A stretch of DNA of 54,484 nt from Bacteroidales bacterium (GCA_015712185.1 JADDYF010000058.1:1-54484), one strand, 5' to 3'. Positions 29,088-32,188 are shown, counted from the stretch's first letter. Notes: generated from the sequence alone by a model not told the origin. A program made the numbers and translations.

Positions 29088-29624
29088 ATGAACAGGGATA
29101 CTGAAACCATAGAGAGGATCCGGAAAGGTGATGCACAGGAATTTGAATCCCTTTTCAGATCCTCCTACGTTTCCCTGGTCAGGTATGCCAGAACGATGGT
29201 CAGAGACCATGATACAGCCGAAGAAATTGTCCAGGATCTGTTTTTCAGACTCTGGAAAGACAAAGAAAAATTAAACATAGAAAGTTCTTTAAATGGCTAC
29301 CTTTTCAGAGCTGTCCATAACAGATGCCTTCACTGGATAGATCATAACAGGATTGTCGGAAATTATGCCCGGGAGATGGCTGATACACATACCGAAAGTC
29401 CCGATAATCCATCCGATATGATCGTTCTTAAGGAGCTCCAGCATAAAATAGTGAAGATCCTGGAACGGCTCCCTGAGAGATGCGGAAGGATATTTTGTAT
29501 GAACCGCTTCGAAGGACTAAAATATGCAGAAATAGCTGAAAAGCTGTCTGTCTCGATCAAAACGGTTGAGGCAAACATGGGAAGAGCGTTAAAAGAATTC
29601 AGAAAAGCTTTGACAGAACAATGA
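29088..29624 (+). CDS. ECF (sigma-70 family group IV) RNA polymerase sigma factor
   Basis: 178 aa. Region 2 (ARTMVRDHDTAEEIVQDLFFRLW) and region 4 HTH (LKYAEIAEKLSVSIKTVEANMGRALK) are present. It starts 14 nt after the upstream stop. Confidence 0.9.
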   Translation: MNRDTETIERIRKGDAQEFESLFRSSYVSLVRYARTMVRDHDTAEEIVQDLFFRLWKDKEKLNIESSLNGYLFRAVHNRCLHWIDHNRIVGNYAREMADTHTESPDNPSDMIVLKELQHKIVKILERLPERCGRIFCMNRFEGLKYAEIAEKLSVSIKTVEANMGRALKEFRKALTEQ

Positions 29625-30622
29625 AAAAAATGAAGAATATTGAAAATCTCTCTGACAAAGAATGGGAGGAACTTGCTTCCATCTTTTCAGATGAAAAGAG
29701 TGAAAAGTCTGAGACGTTCAGTGATTTCATGGCAAATGACAGCTATGAAACTGAAAAACACTGGAAAAAACTGAAAACGATGAGCAGGGATAAGGAGATT
29801 AATGTTGATAATGCATGGGAGAAAGTTAGTGCAAGGATCAGAAGGTCGGACGAAGAAATCAATCCTTCGGGAATAAGAATTATGAGGAGTTCATTCCTGA
29901 AAATCGCTGCAGCGGCTCTGGTGCTGATAGGTCTCGGTACTGCAATGCTTTATCTGAACAAAGCCGGAATTCTTAATAAGAAAACTGTTGTTGCCACAGA
30001 CAGCAATCAGACAAACCTGAGGATTGCGTTACCCGATGGAAGCAATATCAGCCTTAACAGGAACACGCGGTTAAGCTATAACGCAAGCTATGGTGAATCA
30101 GGCAGAAAGGTCACTCTTGACGGGGAAGCTTTCTTTGAAATAACACCTGATGCCGGTAAGGCGTTTATAGTCGATGCCGGAAAAGCCAGCATTGAGGTTC
30201 TGGGAACTTCATTCAATGTAATAACCCAAAATGATGAATCGGCCGTGGAAGTATTTGTTGAAACAGGAAAGGTGATGATGAAAGATAATTCGGGGATACA
30301 GGAAAACCTTGTGATTGACCCGGGATATATTGGTACAATAAGTCCCGAACAATCTGAAAAAAGGATCAACAAGAATCCAAATTACCTGGCATGGAACAAA
30401 GGAAAGCTTGTTTATGCAGACCAGAAGCTTGAAAATGTCTTTAAAGACCTTGAAAGAATCTATGATATTAAGATTATACCATCAGATCCCGAAATCCTGA
30501 ATAATCAGATTACGACAACCTTTGAGGGTCAGTCGCTTGAAACAATTATCATTTTAATTTGTACTACCTTTAACCTCGATCATACACAGGATGGAAACGT
30601 ATACCATCTTATGGAGAAATGA
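29621..30622 (+). CDS. FecR-family anti-sigma factor
   Basis: ATGA start/stop overlap with the sigma gene. It has a single TM segment (LKIAAAALVLIGLGTAMLYL) and FecR periplasmic motifs (LPDGS.ISLN.NT.LSY, L.GEAFFEI, V.VLGT.FNV). Confidence 0.85.
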   Translation: MKKMKNIENLSDKEWEELASIFSDEKSEKSETFSDFMANDSYETEKHWKKLKTMSRDKEINVDNAWEKVSARIRRSDEEINPSGIRIMRSSFLKIAAAALVLIGLGTAMLYLNKAGILNKKTVVATDSNQTNLRIALPDGSNISLNRNTRLSYNASYGESGRKVTLDGEAFFEITPDAGKAFIVDAGKASIEVLGTSFNVITQNDESAVEVFVETGKVMMKDNSGIQENLVIDPGYIGTISPEQSEKRINKNPNYLAWNKGKLVYADQKLENVFKDLERIYDIKIIPSDPEILNNQITTTFEGQSLETIIILICTTFNLDHTQDGNVYHLMEK

Positions 30623-30637
30623 TCAGCTTATTGCAAA

Positions 30638-32188
30638 ATGTTGTCATTCAATGGCTTTATATTCAATAAAGTTTCAGCCATTGCATTGTTCATCTTCCTT
30701 CTCCGGGTACAGGAAGCAATATGTCAGGTAAGTATCCTTGATTCTGCTTTCACATTCAGGGCAGGATTGATCAAAACAGGCAATGCCCTTGATCTCATTA
30801 CCAGGCAGACGGGGTACAATTTTACGTACGACAGCCGCCTGGTCGACAAGGATAATAAAATTGAAATGTCATTCAGAGACGAGAGGCTGGGGAATATTCT
30901 GCATACTATCCTCCGGAACGATTCGCTTGCATTGTCTGTTATTGACAGATACATAGTTATTTCAAAGGCTTTCCGTCCTCCTCCTGTTTCTCCTGATTCA
31001 ATAATCGCGGGAAGAGCCTATTATATTTCCGGACTGATAATAGATGATGAAACCCTCGAACCTCTTCCTTATGCCTCTGTCGGGCTTAAGAACAAGGGGA
31101 GTGGCACGGTTTCAAATTTTAACGGGGAATTCGGACTTAAAATAACTTCCGACTGCATCAATGATACCATATTTATATCCTATCTTGGATACCTTGGCAG
31201 GGAAATACCAGTGAGACAATATCTTGGAAATGATTTCACAATTGCAATGAGAAGTGAGTTTATCCCGATCCCCGAAATCATTATCAGAAATCAGATACCC
31301 CAGGAAATCATTTACAAAACCCTGTCAGCCATACACGACAACTATGGCAGCACCCCCGCCTTGCTGACCGGCTTTTACAGGGAAGGTGTGATGAAGAAGG
31401 AAGAACTGCAGGTATATTCCGAGGCTGTCCTTAGGGTATATAAAAGTGCATATACCGGAACCTTACTGGGTGATCAGATAAAAGTCTATAAAAGCAGAAA
31501 AATAGAAAACACTGATCCGGGCGACACTCTCGCAGTGAGGCTTAAAGCGGGATTAAGCACATGCCTCGAGCTTGACGGTGTTAAAAATACATTTGACTTC
31601 ATCGACAGGAAAAGCATGGATGATTACAGTTACAGGATGACTGATATTGTTACATTTGATGAAGAAGCAGCCTATGTGATAGATTTTGAACAGAGGGAAG
31701 GTGTTGAATTGCCTTTGTTCAGGGGAACAGTATATATCAACACTGACGATTATGCGATTCTGCATGCCGATTTTGAGCTTCATCCGAAATATATACATAA
31801 GATGAAAAGCTCATTTATTTCCAGTTCAACCCGGGGATTTGAAACATGGCCTGTAACAGTAAAGTATTCGGTGAGTTACCGGAAGATCGATGGCAGGTAT
31901 TTCCTCAATCATGTAAGGGGCGACCTGGTATTTACCTCCAAAAAGAAGAGGAAGCTCTTCAGCAGCCAGTTCAAGGTGTTTTTCGAACTGGCAGTTACAG
32001 ACCGGGATTTGACCAATATAACAAGGTTCGACAGGGAAGAGCTTGCTCCCGTGCATTCGGTCTTTTCAAGGACAATAACAAGTTATGATGCCGGGTTCTG
32101 GGAGAACCAGAACTTTCTTAAGCCCGAAGACAATCTCCTTGAAGCGCTTAAAAATATGAAGGTCAGGTTACAGGAATTCTCGGAATAG
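30638..32188 (+). CDS. STN-like signalling domain + CarboxypepD_reg + the same uncharacterised C-terminal domain (paralog B); no TonB-dependent plug or barrel
   Basis: After the signal peptide comes AFTFRAGLIKTGNALDLITRQTGYNFTYDSRLVDKDNKIEMSFRDERLGNILHTILRNDSLALSVIDRYIVIS, which fits the STN pattern. Next is ISGLIIDDETLEPLPYASVGL...SNFNGEFGLKI (CarboxypepD_reg). At 516 aa in total it is too short for a 22-strand TBDT barrel. Confidence 0.7.
   Translation: MLSFNGFIFNKVSAIALFIFLLRVQEAICQVSILDSAFTFRAGLIKTGNALDLITRQTGYNFTYDSRLVDKDNKIEMSFRDERLGNILHTILRNDSLALSVIDRYIVISKAFRPPPVSPDSIIAGRAYYISGLIIDDETLEPLPYASVGLKNKGSGTVSNFNGEFGLKITSDCINDTIFISYLGYLGREIPVRQYLGNDFTIAMRSEFIPIPEIIIRNQIPQEIIYKTLSAIHDNYGSTPALLTGFYREGVMKKEELQVYSEAVLRVYKSAYTGTLLGDQIKVYKSRKIENTDPGDTLAVRLKAGLSTCLELDGVKNTFDFIDRKSMDDYSYRMTDIVTFDEEAAYVIDFEQREGVELPLFRGTVYINTDDYAILHADFELHPKYIHKMKSSFISSSTRGFETWPVTVKYSVSYRKIDGRYFLNHVRGDLVFTSKKKRKLFSSQFKVFFELAVTDRDLTNITRFDREELAPVHSVFSRTITSYDAGFWENQNFLKPEDNLLEALKNMKVRLQEFSE
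30695..30711 (+). repeat. 15/17-nt near-copy of the tRNA-Leu 3' end, inside a coding region
   Basis: TTCCTTCTCCGGGTACA compared with tRNA 36318-36334 TTCCCCCTCCGGGTACA, in the same orientation. Confidence 0.4.

Follow-up and report, generated by a model that had tools for sequence, protein, structure and literature searches.

A Bacteroidales ECF sigma factor/FecR operon in which the STN signalling domain is carried by a protein without plug or barrel

To our knowledge, signalling from an STN domain to a FecR-type anti-sigma factor is understood only for TonB-dependent outer-membrane transporters, and a 54,484-nucleotide (nt) stretch of DNA from a Bacteroidales bacterium (GCA_015712185.1 JADDYF010000058.1:1-54484; hereafter the window, from whose first letter positions are counted) raises the question of how such signalling could work where the transporter is lacking. 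In the window, genes for an extracytoplasmic function (ECF) sigma factor (29088–29624, + strand) and a FecR-type anti-sigma factor (29621–30622, +) are followed by gene B (30638–32188, +; from the open reading frame (ORF) map), coding for a 516-aa exported protein with an STN domain. An earlier note on this DNA, made from the sequence alone, had correctly grouped these three genes as a module but missed gene A (27769–29073, +), which is the first gene of the same operon and encodes an exported paralog of B without STN. We consider the chances somewhat better than even that B is a barrel-less sensor, probably periplasmic, which signals to FecR through its STN domain, possibly with TonB, and so induces its own operon including A.

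Protein B starts with a signal peptide (residues 1–29, 30638–30724, +; predicted signal peptidase I (SPase I) cut before Q30), followed by the STN signalling domain (residues ~36–112, 30743–30973, +) and an Ig-like domain of the NTE/CarbopepD_reg_2 type (residues 128–204, 31019–31249, +). The latter, announced in the earlier note as a CarboxypepD_reg domain, scored 45.9 bits against Pfam CarbopepD_reg_2 (PF13715), above the cut-off; the B family profile matched the NTEs of the solved SusC proteins 6ytc, 5t3r, 8aa4, 9hfj and 6sli, and in Foldseek the NTE of B aligned with that of SusC-dex (9hfj) at a TM-score of 0.84. The STN assignment rests on family evidence rather than on the score of B itself. 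B covered the whole Pfam STN profile (PF07660, positions 1–52 of 52) with residues 60–111 at 21.6 bits (E = 1.9e-4), a borderline result for the single sequence; at the family level the domain is present, with PF07660 matches in 27 of 51 diverse B-type proteins (best E = 3.1e-11; the same 51-member alignment underlies the motif and signal-peptide counts below) and an alignment of residues 36–112 of the family profile to the solved signalling domain of PupA (2a02). Residues 8–218 of B were moreover collinear with the N-termini of 1,100–1,250-aa SusC-type ORFs in many genomes (E ~1e-30 to 1e-38). In B and in these ORFs the STN comes first and the NTE second; for SusC proteins that have both, the text of PMC7782687 puts the NTE before the STN.

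Pfam searches of B detected no Plug (PF07715) and no TonB-dependent receptor barrel (TonB_dep_Rec, PF00593) at E ≤ 1, and the NCBIfam model TIGR04056 matched solely at its positions 3–74. There was no closed barrel in the AlphaFold2 (AF2) model, and Foldseek matches to TonB-dependent transporters were not confident (FpvA chains, probability ≤ 0.21). Failing the plug and barrel that define the class, B is not a TonB-dependent transducer, though the system works like FecA/SusC-type signalling. Could B be the 5′ remnant of a disrupted SusC-like transducer gene, a possibility raised in the earlier note itself? The collinearity of its STN and NTE with SusC-type ORFs would fit such a pseudogene fragment, but clustering at 90% left upwards of 1,300 homologs in the family, nearly all of them 510–530 aa long and aligning with B from end to end. 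Among the 451 clusters of a 50%-identity library that matched at E < 1e-30, most aligned from about residue 10–50 to the C-terminus. The C-terminal 300 aa are conserved, confidently folded in the model and common to paralog A, no plug or barrel remnant lies downstream, where a convergent gene is reached after 2 nt, and 68 of the 301 genomes sampled from the order carry a B-type gene. The length and conservation of the family, together with the gene context, thus rule out a broken SusC gene, and we give this explanation next to no chance.

In the AF2 model of B, built from a 53-sequence alignment (mean predicted local distance difference test (pLDDT) 80.9), an alpha/beta STN domain (residues 37–110; pLDDT 85–92 for the domain) was followed by a disordered linker (residues 115–125), the Ig-like NTE (residues 128–204), a short disordered stretch (residues 212–215), a large domain consisting of one helix and then ~11 long antiparallel strands with short helices (residues 221–460, pLDDT mostly 85–96) and a loosely helical tail (residues 461–516). 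The earlier note had described the part in place of plug and barrel as a ~300-aa beta-rich domain of unknown function. The best Foldseek matches of the large domain in the PDB were DUF1329 (4z48, E = 1.8e-7), Porphyromonas gingivalis LolA3 (9tp6), the LolA-superfamily protein NE2245 (3buu), RseB (2p4b and 3m4w) and LolA (6f3z and 8cgm), with E-values of the LolA-type matches between 1.8e-7 and 1.5e-2 and probabilities of 0.90–1.00; MTP, ApoB and lipovitellin matched with their lipid-binding barrels, likewise at probabilities of at least 0.90. With moderate confidence, and as a call at the level of the fold, residues ~221–460 (31298–32017, +) are predicted to form a soluble, open antiparallel barrel of the LolA/RseB type. 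A small outer-membrane barrel was rejected for this region, given the open LolA-like model, the lack of a C-terminal aromatic signal and the lack of confident matches to outer-membrane protein (OMP) folds. The remaining C-terminal tail with short helices (32018–32188, +, including the stop codon) carries the conserved residues W488 and P496 and ends in ...RLQEFSE, which is not an OMP-type signal.

Bacteroidota SPase I substrates follow a 'Q-rule'. At the signal-peptide junction of the B family, position 29 was A, S or G in 43 and position 30 was Q in 42 of the 51 members, and no conserved cysteine column was found at this junction in the alignment; the small-residue/Gln junction together with the missing cysteine marks B as a substrate of SPase I rather than a lipoprotein. 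Export as a lipoprotein or as cargo of type IX secretion (T9SS) was rejected, there being no conserved lipobox cysteine and no Por_Secre_tail match. The simplest reading is that B is probably a periplasmic protein. Since all its recognisable domains are periplasmic in SusC, and since it has no lipobox, OMP signal or T9SS tail, sensing at the cell surface is less likely than sensing within the envelope. Of the non-canonical surface-signalling module proposed earlier, the FecR/ECF pair with an STN partner lacking a TonB-dependent barrel therefore stands, and the surface is the less probable place of sensing.

Directly after the NTE, the position of the Ton box in SusC proteins (PMC7782687), B carries the Ton-box-like motif IPIPEIIIR (residues 209–217, 31262–31288, +). 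In HMMER alignments the family consensus 'islqEVIIr' sat exactly on 'mvDEVVVt' of BT1763 (6ytc, 5t3r), and on the corresponding strand of 8aa4 and 9gbc; the Ton box of BT1763 is 82-DEVVVTG-88, and its deletion or mutation abolishes function (PMC7782687). Over the 51 B-type proteins the motif read [IV]-[SP]-[LI]-[QP]-E-[VI]-[IV]-[IV]-R, with E213 in 48 and R/K217 in 47 of them. A reads IPIKEIVVR here, and the homologous position of DUF5686 proteins is occupied by an invariant PEV.I. The residues that follow the motif differ, being R-N-x-D-P in the B family versus T-G-Y-G in SusC. Residues 212–215 of B are conserved yet modelled as disordered (pLDDT < 50), and near-invariance combined with modelled disorder is what one would expect of a short segment that forms a strand on binding another protein, for example the C-terminal domain of TonB. 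The genome encodes several TonB_C proteins, and on this sequence evidence TonB may be involved with B.

The regulators upstream of B are of the classical kind. The sigma factor matched Pfam Sigma70_r2 and Sigma70_r4_2 and belongs to the Bacteroides ECF subfamily TIGR02985 of NCBIfam (169 bits, cut-off 126). FecR (Pfam FecR 62.7 bits, FecR_C 44 bits) has a cytoplasmic N-terminal domain, then a single hydrophobic transmembrane segment (residues 92–110), the FecR domain and the STN-binding FecR_C domain (residues 262–327). The FecR domain holds the G195-T196 motif (LGTSF), which in FoxR/FecR-type regulators is the site of self-cleavage and which was retained in 39 of 39 FecR homologs adjoining B-type genes. 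Read directly from the sequence, the sigma and FecR genes overlap in the ATGA at 29621–29624, the FecR–B spacer is 15 nt (30623–30637) and the A–sigma spacer 14 nt, so that every gap within A–sigma–FecR–B is at most 15 nt or an overlap; the coordinates, the overlap and the 15-nt and 2-nt gaps given in the earlier note were all exact. The best explanation is that A, sigma, FecR and B (27769–32188) form one operon of four genes.

Upstream of A lie the promoter-like blocks AATAGGGTA (27685–27693, +) and, 12 nt further on, ATGGTC (27706–27711, +), each at least 90% conserved across 78 orthologous upstream regions. The mechanical ORF of A begins at TTG 27703, while its conserved signal peptide begins at ATG 27769. 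The latter is the better and likely the true start, because the longer ORF would overlap the likely promoter. A search for TAGGGTA-N10-14-TGGTC returned one copy in the 4.1-Mb genome, the operon's own, versus three chance matches for the reversed control; this genome-wide search thus yielded no wider regulon. The two blocks are a candidate ECF-dependent promoter through which the operon would be autoregulated.

Protein A consists of a signal peptide, an NTE/CarbopepD_reg_2 domain (52.7 bits against the Pfam model), the Ton-box-like strand and a predicted LolA-like domain; its alignment with B spans 386 aa at 32% identity (E = 3e-72), and the first ~125 residues of B are missing from it. A-type genes were also found alone, without sigma factor and FecR, in genomes lacking B. 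A therefore has a role independent of B, and B looks like a signalling derivative of A. A is likely the regulated output of the operon. The history of the pair was followed in a tree of the shared NTE and C-domain region (87 rows; quick IQ-TREE run with Shimodaira–Hasegawa-like approximate likelihood ratio test (SH-aLRT) supports), from which three long-branch rows (L138, L139 and L140) were omitted. On this tree the A/B label changed twice, versus 28 times for shuffled labels. The A-type proteins formed one clade (SH-aLRT 98), whose sister was the clade of operon-type B proteins (support 99; joint support 95), the two clades showed mirrored internal branching, and the deeper branches were occupied by more divergent B lineages. 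The tree is in effect unrooted and is read without a direction for the gain or loss of STN. Sister clades with mirrored subtrees indicate that A and B arose by an old tandem duplication and that the copies have been inherited together.

Linkage of these genes was examined at several depths. Among 80 loci with orthologs of B 62–72% identical, all from metagenome-assembled genomes of uncultured environmental Bacteroidales, A–sigma–FecR–B was complete in 73, the other seven being cut by contig ends. At 36–45% identity the four genes were retained while their flanks had changed, to shikimate kinase and trigger factor genes in the Tenuifilaceae locus L124 and to frr and an OmpA gene in L125; the order was also found in genome G031. 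An order survey of 301 sampled genomes, in which 3–5 candidates were scored per genome so that all counts are lower bounds, detected the family in at least 82 genomes, B-type genes in at least 68, A-type genes in at least 73 and both in at least 59; of 71 B genes, 45 had A upstream, with a median separation of 1,687 nt. In an evenly drawn sample of the phylum, the full-length STN form was found solely in three genomes of the same order. FecR adjacency was determined by tblastn on 44 B loci: sigma and FecR genes were directly upstream of B in 20/20 loci with an adjacent A, and FecR was upstream in 19 of the 24 loci without one (in three of the 19 with one gene between FecR and B), while four of the 24 had no sigma/FecR within 4.5 kb and one was ambiguous. 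About 90% of the B-type genes examined thus follow FecR. Two distant lineages have a further gene (L156:2873-4477, +, and L166:2920-4473, +) inserted between FecR and the B-type gene. Its secreted product of ~520 aa combines a PDZ domain with an aspartyl protease domain of the retropepsin-like kind (PF13650), and the L166 version additionally carries a FecR_C-like domain at its N-terminus; this protein is a candidate for a dedicated anti-sigma protease.

Compared with FecA–FecR–FecI of Escherichia coli, FoxA–FoxR–FoxI of Pseudomonas and the SusC-like transducers of Bacteroides, the cassette has the same FecI/Bacteroides-type ECF sigma factor, the same FecR with FecR, FecR_C and GT, the same order of STN, NTE and Ton-box-like strand in the exported partner, and genes linked in one operon. 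In contrast to those transducers, whose Ton box is followed by a plug and a 22-strand barrel, B continues after the Ton-box-like strand into the predicted soluble LolA-like domain; no SusD or polysaccharide utilization locus genes are attached, and the likely output is the STN-less paralog rather than a transporter. RseB–RseA–sigmaE of Proteobacteria uses, as proposed here for B, a LolA-fold periplasmic protein that contacts the anti-sigma factor and gates its proteolysis upon lipidic envelope signals. There, however, the anti-sigma factor is RseA rather than FecR-type, and in B a separate STN domain, instead of the LolA-like domain itself, would make the contact; B also has NTE and Ton-box-like elements and no MucB_RseB sequence match, so that this is an analogy and not membership. 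With the LolA superfamily (LolA, LolB, P. gingivalis LolA3, DUF1329 and NE2245) B shares the predicted open antiparallel barrel with helices; its domain is larger (~240–290 aa), has no sequence-family match and is fused to STN, NTE and Ton-box-like strand, the likeness being one of predicted fold.

Relatives outside the family are the DUF5686 proteins (PF18939). Their NTE, their PEV.I strand, which is Ton-box-like, and the initial half of their middle domain correspond to those of B (hhalign: B 128–379 versus DUF5686 32–311, probability 95.5%, E = 1.5e-8). They differ in their length of ~820–900 aa, in an Omp85-type C-terminal region, in the absence of STN and in not being linked to sigma/FecR. 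Against the 669-position Pfam model the matches were weak for A (23.4 bits) and weak and partial for B (19.7 bits, model positions 122–246), both below the gathering cut-off of 39.2 bits, and B stops ~55 residues past its LolA-like domain, without the ~400-aa C-terminal barrel region. The sole true DUF5686 protein of the genome (891 aa; L141:1402-4077, −, equivalent to G000:C104 ~9097-11322) combines an NTE with a PEVRI Ton-box-like strand and a middle domain that shares homology with A and B. The AF2 model of this protein was weak (overall pLDDT 59.5), the middle domain in particular being modelled poorly, and only the barrel region is used here: the last ~400 residues were reasonably confident, with long antiparallel strands, and matched the Omp85-family barrels of BamA, TamA, Sam50 and Toc75. 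As far as these models go, A and B would thus be the counterpart of the periplasmic part of the outer-membrane DUF5686 family with the barrel removed, and DUF5686 may be an Omp85-like outer-membrane protein in which an NTE plus LolA-like module replaces the POTRA domains.

How might B signal? In canonical systems the STN domain binds and protects the anti-sigma factor's C-terminal domain (PMC11637429); ligand exposes the Ton box, and TonB action frees the contact between STN and anti-sigma factor and starts a cleavage cascade (PMC12036975). B keeps every periplasmic element of this relay and has the LolA-like domain where plug and barrel would be, and we therefore propose that ligand binding in that domain replaces ligand binding in the barrel. 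A hydrophobic ligand, either an acylated or lipidic molecule of the envelope or a partner protein, would bind the LolA-like domain and alter B so that the Ton-box-like strand becomes exposed; the STN–FecR contact would be released, with or without engagement of TonB, and FecR degraded by regulated proteolysis; the sigma factor would then act at the conserved candidate promoter upstream of A to transcribe the operon to which it belongs, raising the levels of B and of A, the presumed non-signalling 'worker' copy.

Several observations weigh against this picture. The STN score of B itself (21.6 bits) lies below the Pfam cut-off of 28.4. The TM-scores of the LolA-type matches, normalised to the target, are only 0.27–0.42, no match to the LolA, LolA_like, MucB_RseB or DUF1329 families was found in B at E ≤ 1 in Pfam, and a PDB profile search with residues 220–516 gave no match. 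Conservation is the sole basis for the candidate promoter. For four B-type genes (L147, L148, L157 and L167) there is no sigma/FecR within 4.5 kb; their products are orphan sensors or else work with a FecR from another locus. Finally, a soluble B offers TonB nothing to pull against; the Ton-box-like motif might then serve some other purpose, or B might have an anchor that is not apparent.

Because of this last point, the main rival is a split surface transducer, in which the LolA-like domain of A or B docks onto a barrel encoded elsewhere (a DUF5686 Omp85-like protein or a TonB-dependent receptor), the signal is external and TonB pulls on the anchored partner. A Ton box makes mechanical sense only in an anchored protein, in DUF5686 an NTE, a Ton-box-like strand and the first part of a middle domain like those of A and B are covalently joined to a BamA/TamA/Sam50-like barrel, one such protein being encoded in this genome, and in L157 the B-type gene is closely preceded by genes for a TonB-dependent receptor and a DUF4249 protein. 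On the other hand, no barrel gene is conserved beside the cassette and the middle domain of DUF5686 is poorly modelled; we regard a split receptor as unlikely. Somewhat less probable still is that the STN-like domain of B is a structural module of the N0/secretin or FecR_C type and B merely a co-transcribed target, with FecR sensing by other means. Besides the low score and the four genes without adjacent FecR, this would accommodate the four of 51 members that match FecR_C instead of, or besides, STN, and the Foldseek matches to secretin N0 domains. However, ~90% of B-type genes directly follow a FecR gene with the STN-binding FecR_C, while the STN-less paralog occurs freely without FecR; presence of STN and linkage to FecR go together, as expected of a signalling contact. 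Several charged residues are also invariant in the family, which would be unusual if the cavity were purely hydrophobic. A and B could instead be chaperones or enzymes that have nothing to do with lipid binding, with R248/E249/E262/R287/D313, for example, forming a catalytic or carbohydrate-binding site and a soluble periplasmic nutrient being sensed; putative Parabacteroides merdae homologs, identified by name, changed in expression under a sugar condition. Against this, the top structural matches are without exception carriers of lipids or acyl chains, Pfam, PDB profile and Foldseek searches placed A and B in no enzyme family by sequence or fold, and this explanation appears improbable.

The proposed barrel-less sensor can be carried one step further, to a possible though doubtful reading in which B is the first soluble periplasmic sensor bearing a TonB box, monitors lipoprotein, lipopolysaccharide or lipid traffic through STN and FecR, possibly using TonB force, and is the counterpart of RseB/sigmaE, with DUF5686 proteins as its anchored relatives. 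We know of no described RseA/RseB-type system in Bacteroidota, and should the LolA-like domain prove to bind lipids or lipoproteins of the envelope, the cassette would be a candidate envelope-surveillance pathway of this phylum. An STN head, NTE and Ton-box-like strand on a barrel-less protein in about a quarter of the sampled Bacteroidales implies that the signalling head can be re-used on another sensor domain, and the cassette provides a handle on the role of the SusC NTE and of DUF5686 outer-membrane proteins. No paper describing the cassette was found; the literature search returned no functional study of DUF5686, of barrel-less STN proteins or of the NCBI product name, and NCBI naming of the B architecture is generic only.

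A lead toward a culturable host comes from published RNA-seq data of P. merdae (GCF_025151215.1), in which NQ542_RS07340 and NQ542_RS07355 were down-regulated ~4-fold (log2 fold change −2.2 and −2.0) upon addition of Neu5Ac to sugar-free medium (PMC12893687, Table 2). The NCBI names of these genes, which are three locus tags apart, match A- and B-type proteins; going by names only, and as a lead rather than evidence, they could belong to a co-regulated A–sigma–FecR–B cassette. If P. merdae or other cultured Parabacteroides carry the cassette, the model is genetically testable.

The genes around the operon are less constant than the operon itself. The order radical SAM (rSAM) (−), A, sigma, FecR, B, OmpA (−), dxs was seen in 61 of the 80 close orthologous loci, the remainder being cut by contig ends. 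The divergent radical-SAM/acylase genes were considered as a conserved target and not supported, their adjacency being lost in L124 and L125. As noted earlier, the next gene after B is a convergent OmpA-family gene (32191–33204, −; Pfam OmpA 66.7 bits), whose stop codon is 2 nt from B; its product has a long coiled coil of ~170 residues ahead of the OmpA domain. An OmpA-family neighbour occurs in 77 of the 80 loci and in L125, with trigger factor in its place in L124, and was rejected as part of the module for being lineage-specific and absent from that Tenuifilaceae locus. Of the B-type genes without nearby sigma/FecR, those in L147 and L148 have a SNF2 helicase gene as upstream neighbour and that in L157 the DUF4249 gene and the TonB-dependent receptor gene mentioned above, the receptor being of the NTE–Plug type. 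The sole other FecR gene of the genome (G000:C453:3841-5416) is followed by a canonical STN–NTE SusC-type ORF, truncated where the contig ends, so that this organism has one classical and one barrel-less module.

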